64,000 nucleotides of DNA from Chloroflexota bacterium (GTDB taxonomy: Bacteria; Chloroflexota; UBA6077; SHYK01), in contig SHYK01000006.1 in NCBI GenBank assembly GCA_009692845.1, positions 16,534 through 80,533 of the forward strand, given 5' to 3'. Of this stretch, positions 27,594-34,610 are shown one piece after another. Every line of letters begins with the position of its first letter. Positions within the stretch are counted from its first letter, which is position 1. The translations under genes and the position numbers were made by a program. The notes under the pieces are model-generated. The model did not search any database. It saw only the letters and a program-made list of their open reading frames with translations, and was not told the DNA's origin.

Positions 27594-28208
27594 TCACAGC
27601 CCACCTTCGAAAGTGTAGGGCTGCGGGGGCACATCCTGCCCCACATCGAGCTGGATCAGAGCGTGCGGGGCGAGCGGGATGTCCCCTGGGTCGCCACTGA
27701 AGCGCTGGCCTCCGACGTAGGCGATCACCTGGCCCTGAGCTGAGCCCACCTGGGTCGCGCTGAGGGGCTGCTGCCAGATATCGAAAAGCTGGCGCAGGGT
27801 GAAGGCCTGGGGCGCCGCGGCTTCGATGTGAATCAGCCCGTCGTTGGTGTGGGTGTGCAGCCAGTAGAAGCAGCTGCCGCCGTCCACGAAAGGACTTCCG
27901 CCGCCGTTATCCACATGACGGGGCGCTGCAATCCCGATGCCCTCCGGTACGGGACGGGCCTGGCCATTGAAAAAGATCGCCAGGTGGGCGTGGACGTGGT
28001 AATTGACCACCTCGGTCAGCCCGCAGGGGATGCCGTCGATGGTCGTCTTTTGCCCATAGTCGGGCGCGGCGGCGAGGGGCAGTCCAGCTGACCCGGCAGC
28101 GACGGGAGTCGAGGTCTGAGCTGGGTTACAAGCCGCTAAGCTCGTAATGGCGAGCATGCACAGCAACCGAGTGGTATAGGTGATCAGCTCAACCATGGTG
28201 GCCGCCAT
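27594..28208 (-). CDS. hypothetical lipoprotein
   Basis: 204 aa with a signal peptide and lipobox (LAITSLAAC), plus a His-rich conserved-looking core (NYHVHAHLAIFFNG, FYWLHTHTNDGLIH). Confidence 0.6.
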   Translation of the reverse strand: MAATMVELITYTTRLLCMLAITSLAACNPAQTSTPVAAGSAGLPLAAAPDYGQKTTIDGIPCGLTEVVNYHVHAHLAIFFNGQARPVPEGIGIAAPRHVDNGGGSPFVDGGSCFYWLHTHTNDGLIHIEAAAPQAFTLRQLFDIWQQPLSATQVGSAQGQVIAYVGGQRFSGDPGDIPLAPHALIQLDVGQDVPPQPYTFEGGL

Positions 28209-28268
28209 GTTAAGGCACTGTTCAGCGACGCGCTACCGCGATGGATTCCCTCCGATAGAATCGCGCCC

Positions 28269-29193
28269 ATGATGCTCCCTTACTCACTGCGGGCGGCGGC
28301 TCTCCGCGGCTATTGGCAGACCACGTTGGTCTCGGCTGGAAGCAATCTGGGCGACCCCGCTCTCTATCTGCTCTGGTGCCTGGTCGGGTTCTTGCGGTCG
28401 CCACCCTGCTGTCGATCTGACGCATGATCCTGCAACCCGACCAGGTCGTCGGCGGCATGTCCACTGGGTCAGTGCTGACCTACACCCTCATTGCCGGCGT
28501 CTTCGCCCAACAGCTCGACGTCAGGACTGAGCTCGGCGACACCTTGTGGAGCGGGGCGATCGCGACCCGCTACCTCCAGCCGATCGGCATCGTCGGCATG
28601 TACGCGGCCGAGCTCATGGGCCACTGGGCTTTCGCCTTCGCGACCTTTTCACTGCCACTGTCGCTTGCTGCACCGCTGCTCGGCGTGGACGCGCGCCCAG
28701 CCTCCCCGGCCCACGCGGTCGCCTTCATCCTGAGCCTCGGCTTGGAGTAACGGTCGGGCTCGCCCTCGACTTCTTGTTCGGCGCCGTGCTAGTCGCGTTG
28801 CGAGAGACCAGCCACGACATGGGTGATCTCGAACAACTGGCCGGCCGGATCGTCCTCATCAACCATGGCGAGATCGCCTACGACGGGACCTTTGCCGGTC
28901 TTCCAGGGAGGGTGGCTGGCCAGCGGCGGCTGGTGATCGACACGGACTCGGAGCAGGCGCCCACGCTAACTGGCGCTGATTTGATCGGGTCAGATGGCGC
29001 GCGCCACACCTACACCTTCAATGCGAGTGACGCCCGGCTGCCCGGCCTGCTGGCTCAGGCGGCGGCGCAAGCTCAGGTCCTCGACGTTGAAACCGAGCGA
29101 CCGGACATCGACGACGTCATCGCGGATTTGTACGAGTCCTGGCAGGCCGACGAGCGGCCGCAAGCGTGGCTCACAAAGCCAACTGATAAATAG
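28269..29193 (+). pseudogene. chimeric remnant: degraded ABC-2 (DUF990-like) permease 5' part joined to the 3' tail of an ABC ATPase
   Basis: The permease reads MMLPYSLRAAALRGYWQTTLV...LYLLWCLVG and then has three lesions:
- Frame change around 28380-28400, then VLAVATLLSI.
- In-frame TGA at 28418-28420, then RMILQPDQVVGGMSTGSVLTYTLIAG...AFILSLGL.
- 1-nt loss at GG 28744-28745, then GVTVGLALDFLFGAVLVAL.
At about 28800 it runs directly into an ATPase H-loop and C-terminal domain (TSHDMGDLEQLAGRIVLINHGEIAYDGTF...). Confidence 0.65.
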
Positions 29194-29262
29194 GCTCTGA
29201 ATCGGCTGGATTGGCCTCAATCACTTGGGTTCAATAGGTGAATCTGGGCAAGTGAGGGACAA

Positions 29263-30219
29263 ATGAGGACAATGGCAGCCGATACGCTGCTTTCTACCCA
29301 GCAGGTTGCGGAGCAGCTGGGCGTCGAAAAGAAGACCGTGCTCCGCTATCTCCATTCAGGAAAGCTCAAGGGTACTCGGATCGGGCGAGACTATCGCATC
29401 GCGGCGGGTGCCGTGTCAGCGCTGCTGGATCCTCCCCGGCAGGTGCCGGTGGCCGAGCGGACCGCAATCGTGACCGCAGTCGTCAACCAAAAAGGCGGCG
29501 TCGGGAAAACGACCACCGTCTTCAACCTCGGCGTGGCTCTGCACCTCCTGGGGCGCCGCGTCCTGCTGGTCGATCTCGATCCCCAGGCTGCACTGTCCGC
29601 CAGTGCCGGTATTCCCGTCGCCCACCTCACGATCAGCATCTATCAGGCATTGTTGGACGACACCCTCGATCCGATCCCGATCATTCGGCAAACCCCGTCG
29701 GGGGTGGACGTCCTGCCGGCCACCCTCGATCTGGCCGCCGCGGAAGTTGAGCTGGTCAACGTCACCCTGCGCGAGCTGGTCCTGAAGGATCTGCTGGCCA
29801 AGCTGCTACCCCGCTACGACCACATTCTGATCGACTGTCCGCCCAGCCTCGGCCTACTTACCATCAATGCATTGGCGGCCGCGGATCGGGTCATCATCCC
29901 GCTTCCCTGTGAGTTCCTGGCGACCCGAGGACTGAACTTGTTACTGCGCACCCTGGAAAAAGTTCAGGCCCGCCTGAATCGAGATCTCAAGATGGCCGGC
30001 ATCCTGCCTACGATGTTCGACGGCCGGACCACCAACGCCAATGAAATCCTCCAAGAGCTGCGCGCCTCTTTCCCGGGCCAGGTCTTCGACGTGATCATCA
30101 AACAGACCGTGCGGTTAAAGGAGTCGCCCGCCGCCGGCCTCTCGATCCTCGAGTACGACCGCGGGCACGACGTGTCCCGTTCCTACCTGCAGCTGGCCCA
30201 GGAGGTGGACCATGCCTAA
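29263..30219 (+). CDS. ParA/Soj-family ATPase with an N-terminal excisionase/MerR-type HTH
   Basis: 318 aa. The HTH (LSTQQVAEQLGVEKKTVLRYLHSGKLKGTRIGRDYRI) is followed by a deviant Walker A (VNQKGGVGKTTT), then LVDLDPQ and IDCPPSLG. Confidence 0.85.
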   Translation: MRTMAADTLLSTQQVAEQLGVEKKTVLRYLHSGKLKGTRIGRDYRIAAGAVSALLDPPRQVPVAERTAIVTAVVNQKGGVGKTTTVFNLGVALHLLGRRVLLVDLDPQAALSASAGIPVAHLTISIYQALLDDTLDPIPIIRQTPSGVDVLPATLDLAAAEVELVNVTLRELVLKDLLAKLLPRYDHILIDCPPSLGLLTINALAAADRVIIPLPCEFLATRGLNLLLRTLEKVQARLNRDLKMAGILPTMFDGRTTNANEILQELRASFPGQVFDVIIKQTVRLKESPAAGLSILEYDRGHDVSRSYLQLAQEVDHA

Positions 30220-30616
30220 GCGGATATCCCTCCAAGGTAAAGGCGTCGACCTCTTCTTCCCCTCCGCGGCGGAGGATCCAGCCCGGGCGAGGTCTGAATC
30301 CTCCGGCCCCGCTGATGCGGCGCCCCAGCACGCTCCGTCGGCGACCCGCTCGATCATGCACGCACGCACGCACCCAACCAGCGCGGATGATCTACTCCGC
30401 GCCCTGAGTGCCAAGCAGCGCCTGGCGTCTTCGACCTTCCGCTTTCAGCCCGACGAGCTGGAGCGCCTGGATGTGATCGTGGACGAGCTGAGCCACGCGC
30501 ATCCAAGGCGGATCAGCAAAAACGATCTCGTGCGCTTGGGGCTGCTCTGGCTCCTCGCCGACTACGAGGCCGATCCCGATCAGAGCCTGGTGGGCCGGCT
30601 GCTTACCCGCTTCTGA
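30212..30616 (+). CDS. small partner protein; putative ribbon-helix-helix centromere-binding protein
   Basis: The start overlaps the parA-like stop by 8 nt. It has a disordered N-terminus. The C-terminus STFRFQPDELERLDVIVDEL...ISKNDLVRLGLLWLLADYE fits a strand-helix-helix pattern. The fold assignment is inference. Confidence 0.55.
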   Translation: MPKRISLQGKGVDLFFPSAAEDPARARSESSGPADAAPQHAPSATRSIMHARTHPTSADDLLRALSAKQRLASSTFRFQPDELERLDVIVDELSHAHPRRISKNDLVRLGLLWLLADYEADPDQSLVGRLLTRF

Positions 30617-30639
30617 TCGCTCGAGAGCGTTTATCGAGG

Positions 30640-30983
30640 CGGGTAAGCCGATGCTGCGCCGAGCCATACCGGCGATGGTGCGGGCCCCAACGAAGCCGGC
30701 CCAGACCAGGTCCGCGAGCTGATCGGCCACCCGGATGGCCCCCTCAACGGCCGAAGGCCAGGCGAGGAACCAAAGAGTGGAGGGGATACTTCCTGTGGTG
30801 AGGTCGCGGGTCGCATAAGCCGAGCGCCGACCTCCGCCTCCACCCGGTCCGCGGCCACCGCCACGGGGCTGTCGGGGCCGCGCACCCGACCCACGCCGGG
30901 GCGTTGCCGTTGGCGGGGAGTGCCCCGTTCGTGCTGTCGGACGCAACCGGAAAAGGGGTCGCGGCTCCGTCAATTCGACTCAA
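30640..30983 (-). pseudogene. 5' remnant of a second MATE efflux gene (paralogue of 31220..32752), frameshifted and truncated
   Basis: MSRIDGAATPFPVASDSTNGALPANGNAP, then a frame change near 30895, then ...RGGGRGPGGGGGRRSAYATRDLTTGSIPSTLWFLAWPSAVEGAIRVADQLADLVWAGFVGARTIAGM. This aligns residue for residue with the N-terminus of the intact MATE at about 60% identity. Similarity ends around 30640, next to the stop of the preceding + strand gene. Confidence 0.65.
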
Positions 30984-31000
30984 ACGTTCATTTCATACAC
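30980..31000 (-). promoter_or_regulatory. 6-codon upstream ORF (GTG TAT GAA ATG AAC GTT TGA, MYEMNV) overlapping the TTG start of the MATE remnant
   Basis: Same peptide as the uORF at 32749..32769. The only differences are synonymous (GAA/GAG, AAC/AAT). Confidence 0.35.
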
Positions 31001-31088
31001 TGATTCGTGGCAGGCGAGCTCGGCTTGGGAGAAGTGGCCGAAATCGAAAATGCCTTACTAAATCCTAATGGAACCATAAGCAGACCGC

Positions 31089-31117
31089 ATAGTAGTTCCT
31101 TTTTGGGGGCCGCTCAA
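31089..31117 (-). promoter_or_regulatory. sigma70-type promoter of the MATE remnant (-35 TTGAGC, 17-nt spacer, -10 TACTAT)
   Basis: The minus strand reads cTTGAGCggcccccaaaaaggaacTACTATgcggtctgcttatgg. The architecture is identical to 32842..32870. Confidence 0.45.
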
Positions 31118-31219
31118 GGCAGGCTGGTCGGCTCCCGAAGCGCCAGTGCCCGACGGCTGGAGAGACTCCGCCTCGTGGTGTGGCAGACGAAGTAGATCTG
31201 CGGCTACCGACCCGCTGAT

Positions 31220-32752
31220 CTAGGCGAAGATTTTTACCGTGCTCCAGCGGCCCCAGAAAATGTAGGGCACCAGGATGAGTGGTCGGACGAGCATTGGCGC
31301 ACACATAGCCCAGGCGATTCCCAGTACTCCCAGGTCCGTCGCTTGGGAGAGGAACAGAGCAAGCGGAAGACTGCCCCACATCGTGACCAGCGTCACGATC
31401 ATCACGATGAGCGTGTCACCTGCGCCCTGGAAGGATTGGGAGGCCACCTGGGTGAGTCCAGTAAACGCATAGCCGACCGCTTGGATGAGTAGCCAGGTGC
31501 GCGCTTGCTCGAGGAACTCGGGATCGCGGGCAAACAGGGACATGAAAAGGTCCGGGAAGAGCACGATGAGGACCGTAAGGATGCCGTTGAATATTAGCCC
31601 GAAACCGCAGGCCCACAAGATCGTATTCCTGGCGCGCAAGGGTTTGCCCGCTCCCAGGCTCTGGCCGACGATGATTCCGGCCGCCTGTCCGAGGCCCTGG
31701 CTTCCCAGCTGCGAAAACATCTCGGTCCGTCGCGTGATAGTGTACGCCGCGGTTGCGATATCGCCGAAAGGGGTGACCAGGCGAAGGAACAGCAGCTGGG
31801 CGAGGGATCGCTCCATCCCGTTGACGACGGCCGGCAGCCCAATCTTGATGAGCTGCTTGATTATTGCGGGGTCGAATCGGAAGCCCCGGAAAGTGAGGTG
31901 TAGCCGGGAGCGCCCGGTAAACAGAACCCAGGACAGGTACGTCAGGGCGACCACGTGGGCGATGACGTTGGCAAGAGCAGCGCCGGCGATGCCGATCGCC
32001 GGGAGGCCGACCAGCCCAAAGACAAGCGCGGGGCTCAAGAAAACGTGGATGAAACGGGAGATCACGGCCGACTTCATCGGGGTCACCGTATCGCCGGCGG
32101 CGGCGAGGGAATGCGCTGCGAGGTTCTGCATCCCAATCGCCAACTGTCCCACGAACTGCACCCGCATGTACGTTGCTCCTTGCTCCACGACCGCCTCGGA
32201 TACCCCGATCAGGCGAAGCAAGTGGTCGGTGAGATAGATGCCTATGAAGGCCAGGACGAGGCAATAGACGAAGCTGATCGTGACCGCGTGCACGACGACC
32301 TGATTGGCAAGGGCGGGGTTGCCCATCCCTATGGCCCTAGAGACCATGGCCCGCATGGCCCAGTCCATGCCCATCCGGGCAGTGAAGGTCAATTGGGCGA
32401 ACTGCTGCGCGGCACCGATGCCTGCGATAGCGACGTGGCCGAAGAACCCGGCCCAAATGAGGTCAGCCACCTGATCGACGACGCGCAGGATGCTCTCAAT
32501 GAACTGTGGCCAGGCGAGGTGGAACAGGTTGCGGGGGATGCTGCCCGAGGTTAGATCCCGGTCGGCGTAAGGCGAGCGGCGACCGCCGCCCGGCCCGCGA
32601 CCTCCGCCCCCACCGGGCCCGCGCACGCCGCGGCCAGGATTCTGGGGGCCCACACTCGAGCCAGCCAATACCGGGGCAGTGTCGTTGGCTGGGAGCGCGG
32701 CGCCGTTGGCGTCAACTTTGGTGGGTGTAGCGGCTCCCTCAATTCGACTCAA
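31220..32752 (-). CDS. MATE-family efflux transporter with a roughly 65-aa Gly/Arg-rich N-terminal extension
   Basis: 510 aa with 12 TM segments. DLTSGSIPRNLFHLAWPQFIESILRVVDQVADLIWAGFFG is a typical MATE N-terminus. TTG is the only start available in this frame. Confidence 0.85.
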   Translation of the reverse strand: MSRIEGAATPTKVDANGAALPANDTAPVLAGSSVGPQNPGRGVRGPGGGGGRGPGGGRRSPYADRDLTSGSIPRNLFHLAWPQFIESILRVVDQVADLIWAGFFGHVAIAGIGAAQQFAQLTFTARMGMDWAMRAMVSRAIGMGNPALANQVVVHAVTISFVYCLVLAFIGIYLTDHLLRLIGVSEAVVEQGATYMRVQFVGQLAIGMQNLAAHSLAAAGDTVTPMKSAVISRFIHVFLSPALVFGLVGLPAIGIAGAALANVIAHVVALTYLSWVLFTGRSRLHLTFRGFRFDPAIIKQLIKIGLPAVVNGMERSLAQLLFLRLVTPFGDIATAAYTITRRTEMFSQLGSQGLGQAAGIIVGQSLGAGKPLRARNTILWACGFGLIFNGILTVLIVLFPDLFMSLFARDPEFLEQARTWLLIQAVGYAFTGLTQVASQSFQGAGDTLIVMIVTLVTMWGSLPLALFLSQATDLGVLGIAWAMCAPMLVRPLILVPYIFWGRWSTVKIFA

Positions 32753-32769
32753 ACATTCATCTCATACAC
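32749..32769 (-). promoter_or_regulatory. 6-codon upstream ORF (GTG TAT GAG ATG AAT GTT TGA, MYEMNV) whose stop overlaps the MATE TTG start
   Basis: The uORF TGA (32751-32749) overlaps the main-ORF TTG (32752-32750). It is conserved in the paralogous leader with only synonymous changes. Confidence 0.4.
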
Positions 32770-32841
32770 CGAATCGTAGCCCCGGATCGGCCTCGCGAGG
32801 GGAAATGTCCTCTTAAAACTATCAATCCATAAGCAGACTGC

Positions 32842-32870
32842 ATGGTAAATCCTTTAGGGGGGCTGCTCAA
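32842..32870 (-). promoter_or_regulatory. sigma70-type promoter of the MATE gene (-35 TTGAGC, 17-nt spacer, -10 TACCAT)
   Basis: The minus strand reads cTTGAGCagcccccctaaaggattTACCATgcagtctgcttatgg. This block is conserved in the paralogous leader while the flanking leader sequence is not alignable. Confidence 0.5.
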
Positions 32871-33002
32871 GGCGGATCGCAACGTAGGCCTTGCCATCGC
32901 CGCTGGCGTACTAACTACGGTGCCAAATGGCACGTGAGTCACCCAAGACCTGATCCACGGATTCGCGACTCACTGCTCGCATCAACCTGATTCGGAGGAG
33001 CC

Positions 33003-33809
33003 TTGGCTCAGACTTCGCCTGCGTACCTTCCCTCAGACGAGGCCCGTAGCCCGTCCCGTGACTGGCTAACGCCGCTCCTCGCGCTGGTGTTCGTGCTTTC
33101 AGGAATCAGCGGCCTCATCTACCAGATAACCTGGGTGAAGCTCCTCGCGCTGACCTTCGGAGTCACGGTCTTCGCCGTGAGCACGGTCGTGGCCGCCTTC
33201 ATGGGTGGCCTAGCCACTGGCTCCCTCCTGGGGGGCAGGCTCGCCGACCGGGTGCGCCGACCGGTGATCTGGTACGCGGCCGCGGAGATTCTGGTCGCTC
33301 TGCTTGCGCTCCGATCCGTGGACGCCCTCAAAACCGTTCAGGCGATCTACGTAGCCCTGGTTCCGAAGGACGTAGAGGTCGCCTCTCTGGGGGTGACTGC
33401 ACTTCGTTTCGGCCTGTCCGCTGCCGTCCTGGCCATCCCCGCGACGCTCATGGGAGCCACGCTTCCGCTGATGATCCGCGGGTTCACCGCCGCCTTCCCC
33501 TACGTGACGATGTGGCAGGACGCATCAATCCTGATAGGCTCCAATCAGCCCATCGATCCCCTGGATCCGGCGCTCGACACACGCTGGCAGCAGCGAAATC
33601 TCGGGGCCCTCTTAGCCGAGACGGGCGTTACGAGCCTCGCCGACTTGCAGAGTCGCTTCGTGCTGAACGATAGGGAAGTCCGGGCCTGGGCCGGGACCGG
33701 GACCGGGACCGGGACCGGGACCGGGACCGGGACCGGGACCGGGCAGATCATGACCGACGACCATCCTTATGCGGAGTACTTCCTCACGATGACGGGGCCG
33801 GAGAGCTGA
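33003..33809 (+). pseudogene. fused-MFS/spermidine-synthase-like gene with a large in-frame internal deletion (remnant)
   Basis: N-terminal TM region LSGISGLIYQITWVKLLALTFGVTVFAVSTVVAAFMGGLATGS. At about 33485 it jumps to the family's C-terminal end (FPYVTMWQDASILIGSNQPI...IMTDDHPYAEYF). The whole methyltransferase-fold core is missing. The family pattern is from memory. Confidence 0.5.
33691..33743 (+). repeat. perfect hexanucleotide microsatellite (CCGGGA) x8.8, in frame, encoding (Gly-Thr)8
   Basis: ccggga is repeated 8 times at 33691-33738, plus a partial ccggg. The ORF translation is AWAGTGTGTGTGTGTGTGTGQ. Confidence 0.95.
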
Positions 33810-33983
33810 GAGGAATCCGCGATAAGACGGCTCGAACACTCGCCACTGCGCAGATTGTGACGTTGGCCGAAGTATTGAGCACGCACGCATGCACCCGATT
33901 CGGCGAGATGCCCTCTCTGCGCCTGGGCTGCTCCGTCCTCACGGCCTCTTAAGGCGAATCCCGACGAAAGCCGGCTCGGACGG

Positions 33984-34610
33984 CTATTCGCTCGCATTTG
34001 AGCCCGAGCCATAGAGGCCCTGCTCGGCGATAAAGTCCGCCACTGGTCCGGGGACGAAATAGCGAATCGAGCGGCCGGTCGCGACCCGGTGACGGATGTC
34101 GGATGCCGAAATCTCCAGGCCGGGCGCGTCGAGGATTGTCACCCTGCCTCTCGCCTCAGGCAAGTGGGCTTCGAGCGCAGCGAAGTCTCCCGCTCCAACG
34201 CCTCCCCGGGCTACCGCGACAATATGCGCCAGGTGCAGGATTTCGGCAGGATCGCGCCAGTGCACCAGCTCCGGAAGCGAATCCATCCCAATGAGGAAAA
34301 AGAGCCCCGCATCCGGGAAATCGGCTTTGAGCAACTTCAACGTGTCGACCGTGTAGGACGGCCCCGGGCGGTCTAACTCGACCACTGAGACCGCAAAACG
34401 CGCGTTGTCAGCGATTGCTAGCTGCACCATCGTGTAACGCTGCTGCGGGGTCGCTAGGGGGCTCGTGCTTCGGTGTGGCGGCACACTGGCCGGCACGAAG
34501 ATCACCTTCGCCAGATTCAGGACGCTCGCCGCTTCTTCGGCGATGAACAGATGGCCGATATGGATCGGATCGAAGGTGCCGCCAAAAATCCCGATCCGGG
34601 CTAGATCCAT
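33984..34610 (-). CDS. nadD: nicotinate-nucleotide adenylyltransferase
   Basis: 208 aa with GIFGGTFDPIHIGHL and SASDIRHRV motifs. Overlaps the obg 3' end by 10 nt. Confidence 0.9.
   Translation of the reverse strand: MDLARIGIFGGTFDPIHIGHLFIAEEAASVLNLAKVIFVPASVPPHRSTSPLATPQQRYTMVQLAIADNARFAVSVVELDRPGPSYTVDTLKLLKADFPDAGLFFLIGMDSLPELVHWRDPAEILHLAHIVAVARGGVGAGDFAALEAHLPEARGRVTILDAPGLEISASDIRHRVATGRSIRYFVPGPVADFIAEQGLYGSGSNASE

Follow-up and report, generated by a model that had tools for sequence, protein, structure and literature searches.

Overlaps of stop and start codons of the NUGA type, UUGA included, are the commonest geometry of coupled ORFs, also among uORF-ORF pairs with an SD-less downstream ORF, according to PMC6728339 and bioRxiv 10.1101/2022.06.01.494293. 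Gene pairs with ATGA or TGATG are likewise coupled in bacteria and archaea, as described by Huber et al. 2019 (PMC6728339), and the 5' leaders of Mycobacterium tuberculosis contain coupled uORF-ORF pairs with NUGA overlap (D'Halluin et al., bioRxiv 10.1101/2022.06.01.494293). The locus described here lies in a 64,000-nt stretch of a Chloroflexota contig (SHYK01000006.1; the window) and resembles these pairs in that the stop codon of a uORF and the overlapping start codon of a MATE efflux gene together occupy 4 nt (UUGA), the main ORF has no SD, and the genome is GC-rich with non-AUG starts. In comparison with the coupled NUGA pairs, however, this uORF, whose translation is putative, is extremely short (3-6 codons) and preceded at best by GGUG, and only two paralogous copies in a single lineage show the arrangement.

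Translational attenuation by leader peptides is known for ermC/ermB, cat, and cmlA, and also for the mef/msrD leaders. The MATE locus shares with erm, cat, and cmlA a very short ORF in the leader of a resistance/efflux-type gene. In contrast to those systems, no stem-loop masks the MATE start, the uORF overlaps this start and is not followed by a hairpin, and the MATE leaders contain no conserved arrest peptide. For tetA(L) of Bacillus subtilis, translational reinitiation after a leader peptide was reportedly described by Stasinopoulos, Farr and Bechhofer in 1998; that leader is said to have 20 codons, its own RBS, and leader structure, unlike the MATE leader. The likeness is that translation of the efflux gene would need ribosomes that come straight from a leader ORF, as is proposed for MATE. 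Finally, repressor operators of the TetR/MarR/PadR type over efflux-pump promoters have a parallel in the perfect or near-perfect 18-bp inverted repeat over the -10 of the clade's MATE genes. In contrast to such operators, however, a regulator gene is adjacent neither in the window nor in related loci, and only the left half-site is intact in the window copies.

The tandem MATE genes and their leader islands

The intact transporter gene, MATE1 (31220..32752, minus strand), is an ORF of 510 aa with a TTG start that matches PF01554 in 2 stretches (E 1e-50; 171.9 bits against a cut-off of 24.9) and so belongs to the MatE family. The protein has a Gly/Arg-rich N-terminal extension of ~65 aa and homologues in Chloroflexota MAGs at 82-86% identity; no MSRI(E/D)GAA N-terminus was found among the matches listed (120 homologues). 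The second copy, MATE2, is adjacent to MATE1 in the same orientation. According to its alignment to MATE1, it retains the 5' ~110 codons of a paralogue (30650..30983, minus strand), with the cut end at ~30650-30665. The earlier note had called it a 5' remnant; the truncation is indeed present, but there is additionally a frameshift near 30893, which that note had missed. The N-terminus of MATE2, read in the TTG frame, is identical to MATE1 residues 1-34 at 19/36 positions, and the core matches MATE1 in a different frame from the N-terminus. On this alignment, copy 2 is a frameshifted, truncated pseudogene. A protein identity of about 60% had been given for the paralogues, and 60% is what the conserved core yields. 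MATE2 is nearer to the proteins P0009, P0013, and P0006 of other genomes (73-75%) than to MATE1 (60%). Because of this relation and of the low core identity, the tandem copies are, by these identity values, old paralogues that diverged anciently. Next to the cut end of MATE2 and abutting it, a ParA-like ATPase with an HTH_17 domain is found together with a 134-aa ORF (29263..30616, plus strand); both lie outside the regulatory element and are context only. No regulator gene is adjacent, which agrees with the earlier description.

A repeat search independently recovers two conserved blocks in the leaders, all on the minus strand: block A, with 47 nt at 85% identity (32827..32873 in copy 1 and 31074..31120 in copy 2), and block B, with 57 nt at 86% (32724..32780 and 30955..31011). 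The positions previously assigned to both blocks, to the uORF, and to the overlap are correct, as is the remark that most of the leader sequence is unalignable: the stretches between the blocks, 57 and 73 nt long, barely align. The core of block B, from GTGTATGA to GGAGCCGC, is identical at 37/40 positions, compared with 63% over the whole 488-column two-copy alignment, and column permutation for an equally conserved window gives p = 0.015, 0.0025, and 0.0046 (30, 51, and 57 nt, respectively). Block B is significantly conserved beyond chance versus the rest of the duplicated segment. Since the sequence between the blocks is unalignable, selection is a better account than a single tract of recent conversion. 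Part of the conservation in copy 2 could, as this copy is a pseudogene, reflect recent loss and not continuing selection.

We propose that the two islands are two control points of the MATE efflux gene, kept by both tandem paralogues. Island A would be a promoter, directly followed by the half-palindrome GCTTATGG, to which a putative dimeric regulator from elsewhere would bind. Island B, an AU-rich and unstructured stretch of 40 nt, would be the translation-initiation region. Its mini-uORF, with 6 codons from GTG or, more probably, 3 from the internal ATG, would end in a UGA overlapping the SD-less UUG (UUGA), and ribosomes ending there would reinitiate on this UUG, i.e., by termination-reinitiation (translational coupling). 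The role of coupling may be the constitutive loading of ribosomes on a weak start. Within this explanation we infer the translation of the uORF, the coupling, the place of the transcription start, and a protein on the palindrome. Taken as a whole, a promoter/operator island combined with a uORF island coupled by termination-reinitiation seems quite possible, though somewhat short of probable. As for its translational part, ordinary coupling rather than a drug sensor is most likely.

The candidate promoter island and its palindrome

In block A of copy 1, the candidate -35 TTGAGC (32865..32870), which is identical in both copies, stands 17 nt before the candidate -10 TACCAT (32842..32847; TACTAT in copy 2), and TACCAT is followed by GCAGTCTGCTTATGG. 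In copy 2 the promoter elements occupy 31117-31089 and read TTGAGC-17-TACTAT, with GCGG and GCGGTCTGCTTATGG; this block lies ~100 nt downstream of the MATE1 stop. The positions, the hexamers, and the 17-nt spacer reported earlier are all accurate. The score versus consensus, however, is only 8/12 (4/6 + 4/6; T1, A2, and T6 of the -10 matched), just below the cut-off of 9/12 used in the promoter scan, and hence this promoter was not listed. Block A may be described as a promoter region with the candidate sigma-70 promoter TTGAGC-17-TACYAT. In the alignment by MAFFT, the -35 of the clade promoters, TTGCTA(T), falls on the candidate -10 TACCAT.

Within block A, conservation is highest in GCTTATGG, which corresponds to the left half of the 18-bp palindrome GCTTAT-N6-ATAAGC. 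Both window copies contain degenerate versions of it on the minus strand: GCTTATGGATTGATAGTT in copy 1 (32817..32834; 3 mismatches, left half intact, right half 3/6) and GCTTATGGTTCCATTAGG in copy 2 (31064..31081; 2 mismatches, right half 4/6). Thus, the left half-site plus GG is perfect in both copies, and the right half is degenerate in both. With at most 1 mismatch, GCTTAT-N6-ATAAGC is present 55-75 nt 5' of the start codon in the related loci L004, L088/89, L090, and L091, and no other occurrence at that spacing was detected in 608 kb of related loci. In the closest MATE clade, from other Chloroflexota, the palindrome overlaps the promoter -10. MAFFT places block A on the palindromes of these relatives, with copy 1 positionally homologous to L004, L088, L090, and L091. 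The palindrome resembles an operator that a dimeric transcription factor, encoded at another locus, would probably bind, and this suggests transcriptional control by an unlinked regulator.

The mini-uORF and the TTG start

In copy 1 the uORF reads GTG TAT GAG ATG AAT GTT TGA (32749..32769, minus strand; 6 codons, MYEMNV), and in copy 2 GTG TAT GAA ATG AAC GTT TGA (30980-31000). A 3-codon uORF, ATG AAT GTT TGA (32749..32760, minus strand), is nested in the former, with GGTG 6 nt upstream as the sole SD-like element. In both copies the uORF TGA overlaps the MATE TTG (32752 and 30983, respectively) as TTGA, a stop/start overlap of the NUGA type. Only ~2% of the NTG triplets in the window show an NTGA overlap with an ORF of 2-10 codons, which gives the chance rate of this geometry.

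TTG 32752 is, by several comparisons, the real MATE start, since an in-frame stop lies 4 codons upstream, all 4 differences between the copies in MATE codons 1-10 are at third positions ((1/3)^4 = 0.012), and homology between the copies extends over the N-terminal 34 residues. It had been named as the only available start, which is true between the upstream in-frame stop and codon 29; further down, however, in-frame TTG and GTG codons exist. Substitutions follow the phase of the uORF up to the TTGA overlap and that of the MATE gene from there on. Within the uORF, both differences are at third positions and synonymous, as the earlier note had emphasised, but as evidence they weigh little, being two transitions between two sequences, with p ~1/9 (~0.11).

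No SD motif was found before TTG 32752. Many window genes are led by AGGAGG, GGAGG, or GAGG at proper spacing. The anti-SD duplex energy of SD-led window genes ranges from -9.5 to -11.5 kcal/mol, and at the MATE TTG it equals -5.5 (copy 1) and -1.8 (copy 2) kcal/mol. The initiation signals of the downstream ORF are thus weak, namely a TTG without SD. Before the uORF GTG, no SD was found in either copy, and the internal ATG is preceded only by GGUG in copy 1 and AGUG in copy 2 (duplex energies of -5.5 and -1.8 kcal/mol), with copy 2 at the background level. Judged by these motifs and energies, the uORF is without a convincing ribosome-binding site of its own.

The earlier note had made conservation of the uORF in orthologous leaders decisive; this comparison was run, and block B and MYEMNV are absent from ~10 independent leaders of the closest relatives (L001-L004, L086-L093). 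Instead of the uORF arrangement, the closest relatives have a normal GAGGT SD with ATG or GTG, and the closest orthologue shows a TAATG overlap with an unrelated 8-codon uORF. L003 and L004 lack the stop/start overlap geometry, and in most relatives the start is of the ordinary, SD-led kind. MAFFT aligns block B with the SD/start region of relatives too weakly to decide on an ancestral-start role of the uORF ATG. Neither block was found by blastn-short in 80 more distant GTDB loci, which also lack MYEMNV and were collected with an alignment-based protein scan (a single-protein pattern scan found nothing). In the JGI metagenome scan, a 22-mer of block B gave 0 matches, and a 21-mer of block A gave one chance match, inside a CPBP-protease gene of a low-GC organism. 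Across the genomes and metagenomes searched, the block B/uORF element is confined to one lineage. Of the arguments for termination-reinitiation, the real TTG, the missing SD, the UUGA geometry, and the change of substitution phase stand, while the synonymous argument is weak, the uORF has no convincing RBS, and the relatives examined do not contain it.

Alternative readings and significance

Block B might also act as a nucleic-acid element with an incidental uORF, i.e., an AU-rich standby or landing site for SD-independent UUG initiation, or a site for a translational repressor, an sRNA, or a DNA-binding roadblock protein. We regard this as a real possibility, though a rather unlikely one. Conservation runs as one continuous block through ~12 nt before the uORF, the uORF itself, and 20 nt of the MATE ORF; the core has ~32% GC in a genome of 63% GC and is unstructured; and no start codon in block B has a good SD. 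There is also an internal repeat, TGAGATGAAT / TGAGTCGAAT, followed by TGAG, and the synonymous argument for the uORF is weak (p ~0.1). Weighing against the preferred explanation, block B harbours further mini-ORFs (MNV* and ATG-AGA/AAA-TGA in both copies, MFESN* in copy 1 alone) and TGA in all three frames within 16 nt, so that the chosen uORF is not the sole possible reading. Against a nucleic-acid element, the third-position pattern changes frame precisely at TTGA, the overlap with a short ORF has the low chance rate given above, and the copy 2 changes in the first repeat unit (GAG to GAA and AAT to AAC) reduce its likeness to the second. The element also belongs to no Rfam family and has no shared fold. 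A cmscan of positions 30000-34000 against Rfam 15 (E up to 10) reported only spurious eukaryotic and viral families, with no riboswitch or leader family among them. Folds of the whole leaders and of the start region contain no stable or copy-shared hairpin masking the start and are no more stable than shuffles (z from -0.08 to +1.64; +0.5 to +1.6 for local folds of block B), and the weak hairpin that copy 1 can form around the uORF has no counterpart in copy 2. An unstructured region is as expected for an open initiation site.

That the blocks are now functionless, either as gene-conversion patches between the tandem copies or as slowly decaying remnants with the uORF as a by-product, appears improbable. 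In line with it, the tandem copies sit side by side and point the same way, the second of them is a pseudogene, no other genome searched contains the blocks, and in the DNA metagenomes with the same population (n = 3), which are all identical in sequence, the blocks are found on no other contig. However, two patches of ~45-55 nt split by 57-73 nt of unalignable, indel-bearing sequence are unlike a single conversion tract, and the N-terminal codons 11-34 beside block B are also diverged. Furthermore, the substitutions respect two reading frames, and half of block A is conserved across genomes.

A stalling leader peptide, MYEMNV, through which a drug or metabolite would induce the efflux gene as in erm, cat, and cmlA, is very improbable. 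This idea, put forward in the earlier note, draws on the short ORF directly 5' of an efflux gene, the two synonymous substitutions, the missing adjacent regulator gene, and the fact that other resistance and efflux genes are well known to be under the control of leader peptides. The analysis does not support it: alternative start-masking hairpins are absent, with folds that are weak, unshared between copies, and no better than shuffles, and, as uORF and start overlap, stalling on the uORF would block this start and not open it. In addition, the uORF has no SD of its own, MYEMNV is absent from all related leaders examined, and the operator-like palindrome of the clade offers a simpler route to induction. 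To our knowledge, MYEMNV carries none of the known arrest motifs.

The two blocks could also be the ends of one 28-codon leader ORF (32757..32843, minus strand), in which block A gives the RBS and start, block B gives the stop, the middle is unconstrained, and MATE is coupled; we find this highly doubtful. Such an ORF, open for 28 codons in copy 1 only, would start at AAAGGA-N6-ATG in block A, stop with the TGA at 32757, 4 nt before TTG, and account for exactly two conserved islands. Its AAAGGA-N6-ATG, then C(A/G)G TCT GCT TAT GG, is kept in both copies and, of all leader sites, pairs most consistently with the anti-SD (-5.5 and -5.8 kcal/mol). In copy 2, however, the frame stops after 10 codons (TAG TAA), and the 16-nt difference in block spacing is not divisible by 3. 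The ATG is also located within the candidate -10 and 5' of the start that the clade-homologous promoter predicts, so that neither candidate promoter would transcribe the ORF and a third, unseen one would be needed. Besides, the second codon is followed by 11 nt that do not differ between the copies, not even by a synonymous change, and the clade palindrome explains them.

Three further candidates were rejected: programmed frameshifting that would carry uORF ribosomes into the MATE frame (a slippery sequence is missing, and in the +1 frame a stop follows after 4 codons), a leaderless transcript from the uORF (no convincing -10/-35 at the right distance in both copies), and antisense ORFs across block B (their similarity mirrors nucleotide conservation, and the differences are non-synonymous).

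As for the meaning of the preferred explanation, a promoter/operator island plus a coupled uORF island, neither the coupling nor the palindrome alters current concepts. There is only a slight chance that MYEMNV, or its MNV core, is a regulatory leader peptide whose pausing or UGA termination responds to a substrate or ribosome drug and sets reinitiation at UUG; if true, MATE transporters would gain their first described leader-peptide or reinitiation switch, one from Chloroflexota. If the coupling is real, the locus would provide an example from uncultured Chloroflexota of an SD-less, UUG-initiated transporter fed by a 3-6-codon uORF via UUGA; such initiation is increasingly seen to be common among GC-rich bacteria but has been little studied outside mycobacteria. 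The MATE-promoter palindrome, as a candidate operator and regulon of a Chloroflexota efflux-pump family, is probably of more general use.

MATE paralogues and their surroundings

The Chloroflexota genome that contains the window has a GC content of about 63%, the source being freshwater metagenomes. The intact MATE efflux gene, MATE1 (31220..32752, minus strand), encodes a 510-aa transporter (PF01554, E 1e-50), and a second leader lies about 100 nt 3' of its stop. This leader precedes MATE2, the 5' remnant of a paralogue (minus strand, 30983 down to ~30650), of which the first ~110 codons are left. MATE2 is frameshifted as well as cut, with its N-terminus and conserved core in different frames: the N-terminus, in the frame of TTG 30983, has 19/36 residues identical to MATE1 residues 1-34, and the core has 32/53 (60%) identical to residues 60-112. 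In the core MATE2 is nearer to P0009, P0013, and P0006 (73-75%), proteins from other genomes, than to MATE1, and MATE1 has relatives with 82-86% identity elsewhere. By these sequence comparisons the two copies are old paralogues and not a recent duplication.

MATE2 is cut where two features terminate, a 134-aa ORF and a plus-strand ParA/HTH_17 gene (29263-30219), which encodes a ParA-like ATPase with HTH_17 at its N-terminus. Upstream of the two lie ORFs with no Pfam match and a fragment-like appearance; the whole stretch, 28200-30650, could be the scar of an insertion or rearrangement. As for other genomes, the MATE gene of P0005 (locus L090:1-260) follows the 3' end of a further MATE gene (...PYYLSGRWLRIRVFG*), so the tandem arrangement of two MATE genes and an internal promoter recurs in the clade. 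MATE1 residues 1-65 (window 32555-32752) form a clade-wide cytoplasmic N-terminal extension also found in homologues, with a variable, low-complexity first part and, at its end, a Gly/Arg-rich segment plus a conserved motif, RRSAYATRDLTSGSIPRNLWFLAWP. An unusual architecture is seen in the Chloroflexota homologues P0051, P0067, P0083, P0096, and P0110 (620-650 aa), in which a DnaJ J-domain (PF00226) is fused N-terminally to MATE. A (GGACCG)n hexanucleotide tandem repeat of ~10 units (33682-33747), encoding a Pro-Gly-type run, sits within a divergent ORF for a membrane protein (33003-33809) whose one domain match, to MFS_1, is faint.

Conserved leader islands and the palindrome

All coordinates and sequences in the earlier note proved correct on rereading, and its sequence observation is confirmed overall. 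An independent repeat search reports two islands shared by the minus-strand leaders: block A (32827-32873 vs 31074-31120; 47 nt, 85%) and block B (32724-32780 vs 30955-31011; 57 nt, 86%), the core of the latter, GTGTATGA..GGAGCCGC, being identical at 37/40 positions. In comparison, the full alignment of the duplicated segment has 63% identity, the well-conserved coding core has just 60-75%, and the stretch between the blocks (57 vs 73 nt) is barely alignable. According to alignment-column permutation, windows as conserved as block B have p = 0.015 (30 columns), 0.0025 (51 columns), and 0.0046 (57 columns). A single recent conversion tract would not give a pair of islands, 45-55 nt each, in otherwise diverged sequence; the economical reading is that both islands were under purifying selection, at any rate before MATE2 was disrupted. 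Three DNA metagenomes, all from one population, are the only ones that contain the sequence, with no variants and no extra copies of the blocks.

Block A contains the best promoter candidate in the window, the TTGAGC-17-TACYAT proposed earlier, although it scores 8/12, below the scan threshold. Common promoters of relatives are TTGCTA-17-CAsSAT (L088, L090, and L091) and TTGCTA-17-TAAGGT (L004, L003, and L001). In the closest MATE clade (at least 65% identity to MATE1), the promoters have an 18-bp palindrome over their -10, GCTTAT-N6-ATAAGC, found at L090:199-216 (GCTTATGGCAGGATAAGC), L091:95-112 (GCTTATGGCACCATAAGC), L088:1439-1456 (GCTTATGGCAGCATAAGa), and L004:35-52 (GCTTATGAACAGATAAGg). 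With 6-nt spacing and at most 1 mismatch, it occurs at the promoter position alone in 608 kb of related loci; with at most 2 mismatches it is confined to the same clade, ~1.6 matches being expected anywhere in 43 kb of upstream regions. No copy turned up in more distant members of the family.

The window has degenerate copies at 32817-32834 and 31064-31081, with an intact left half and 3/6 and 4/6 matches in the right half. MAFFT aligned the window's TCTGCTTATGG-N-AT... to the palindrome and TTACCAT/CTACTAT to the relatives' TTGCTAT. According to this alignment, the 12 best-conserved nucleotides of block A, previously taken for the transcription start, instead represent the left half, still intact, of an operator-like site shared across the clade. 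The palindrome is a candidate operator, which would imply a dimeric regulator encoded elsewhere; as already noted from the sequence, there is no adjacent gene for a TetR or MarR regulator.

MATE start codon and the upstream ORF

An in-frame TGA precedes TTG 32752 by four codons, and this TTG is the sole canonical start ahead of codon 29. The copies differ at four sites in codons 1-10 (GAG/GAC, GCT/GCG, ACA/ACC, and CCC/CCT), each a third position in the MATE frame ((1/3)^4 = 0.012), and the ~25 residues after codon 10 are recognisably homologous; on both grounds the TTG is the real MATE start. No Shine-Dalgarno sequence (SD) precedes it, while many window genes have AGGAGG, GGAGG, or GAGG at 4-10 nt. 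The anti-SD duplex energy at the TTG is −5.5 (copy 1, MATE1) and −1.8 (copy 2, MATE2) vs −9.5 to −11.5 kcal/mol in SD-led genes, with ~37% of random positions reaching −4.

The TGA of the 6-codon upstream ORF (uORF), MYEMNV, and the MATE TTG share TTGA, a 4-nt NUGA overlap. Such overlaps are the commonest geometry among coupled ORFs (bioRxiv 10.1101/2022.06.01.494293; PMC6728339). In M. tuberculosis they are frequent for uORF/main ORF pairs, and more than half of such main ORFs have no initiation signals (bioRxiv 10.1101/2022.06.01.494293). By chance, only ~2% of NTG triplets in this window overlap an ORF of 2-10 codons as NTGA. The synonymous character of the uORF changes holds, both being third-position transitions, so that the substitution phase follows the uORF frame up to the overlap and the MATE frame after it; two substitutions, however, give a p of only about 0.11. 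Neither copy has an SD for the uORF GTG. The internal ATG (MNV*) has GGUG 6 nt 5' in copy 1, the same element as precedes obg, but AGUG in copy 2.

The earlier note named a lack of uORF conservation in orthologous leaders as refuting its reading, and neither block B nor MYEMNV occurs in any of the closest relatives' leaders read: L001/L002 (86% protein identity), L003 (82%), L004 (84%), L088/L089 (65%), L090 (67%), L091 (66%), and, near the MATE2 lineage, L087 and L092/L093. The L086 contig covers just 23 nt 5' of the gene. These relatives have a short leader and a good GAGGT-type SD followed by ATG or GTG. Matching the window leaders against 84 loci with blastn-short gave nothing above noise, and the metagenome scan reported 0 matches for a block B 22-mer and one for a block A 21-mer. 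The latter (L085:283-303) falls within the gene for a protease of CPBP type (EEVMFRGTMQSAYG); the organism is unrelated and of low GC, and the match was rejected as chance. In the closest orthologue (L001:3955-3985, the same in L002 and L005), the first in-frame ATG, without an SD, overlaps the stop of an 8-codon uORF as TAATG; the database annotation starts 7 codons downstream at a GTG. This ATG-initiated uORF encodes MRRVLVNA, unrelated to MYEMNV, and the overlap, the only parallel to that of the window, is analogous, not homologous. A comparable overlap is absent in L003, L004, and most other relatives.

Readings of the two islands

The reading we tentatively prefer, while giving it somewhat less than an even chance, combines a promoter/operator island with a translation-initiation island. 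In the latter, the SD-less UUG would be fed by termination-reinitiation from the 3-6-codon uORF, as a constitutive coupling with no sensor. The main rival, which we consider rather unlikely, is that block B is an RNA- or DNA-level cis element and the uORF is incidental. Further mini-ORFs in block B are ATG-AGA/AAA-TGA and MFESN* (the latter confined to copy 1), and every frame has a TGA inside 16 nt, so another description fits the block as well as the MYEMNV uORF does.

A 28-codon ORF (MQSAYGLIVLRGHFPSRGRSGATIRCMR; 32757-32843, copy 1 only), running from AAAGGA-N6-ATG in block A through conserved codons to a TGA 4 nt before the MATE TTG, would join both islands and neatly account for why the two were kept. 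Its frame, however, is broken in copy 2, where the equivalent ATG meets a stop after 10 codons; moreover, its ATG falls within the candidate -10 and its invariant codons are accounted for by the clade palindrome. As for the drug-dependent stalling of the erm/cat type suggested earlier, nothing supports it. A ribosome stalled on the uORF would sit over the UUG, since the uORF overlaps the start and does not precede a masking hairpin. In the leaders, no secondary structure was either stable or common to both copies (z-scores −0.08 to +1.64, no better than shuffled sequence), and no Rfam family matches them. Programmed frameshifting, a leaderless uORF, and antisense ORFs were examined and dropped.

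If constitutive reinitiation coupling is correct, the uORF-MATE arrangement would belong to a known kind, termination-reinitiation coupling, in a lineage-specific form.
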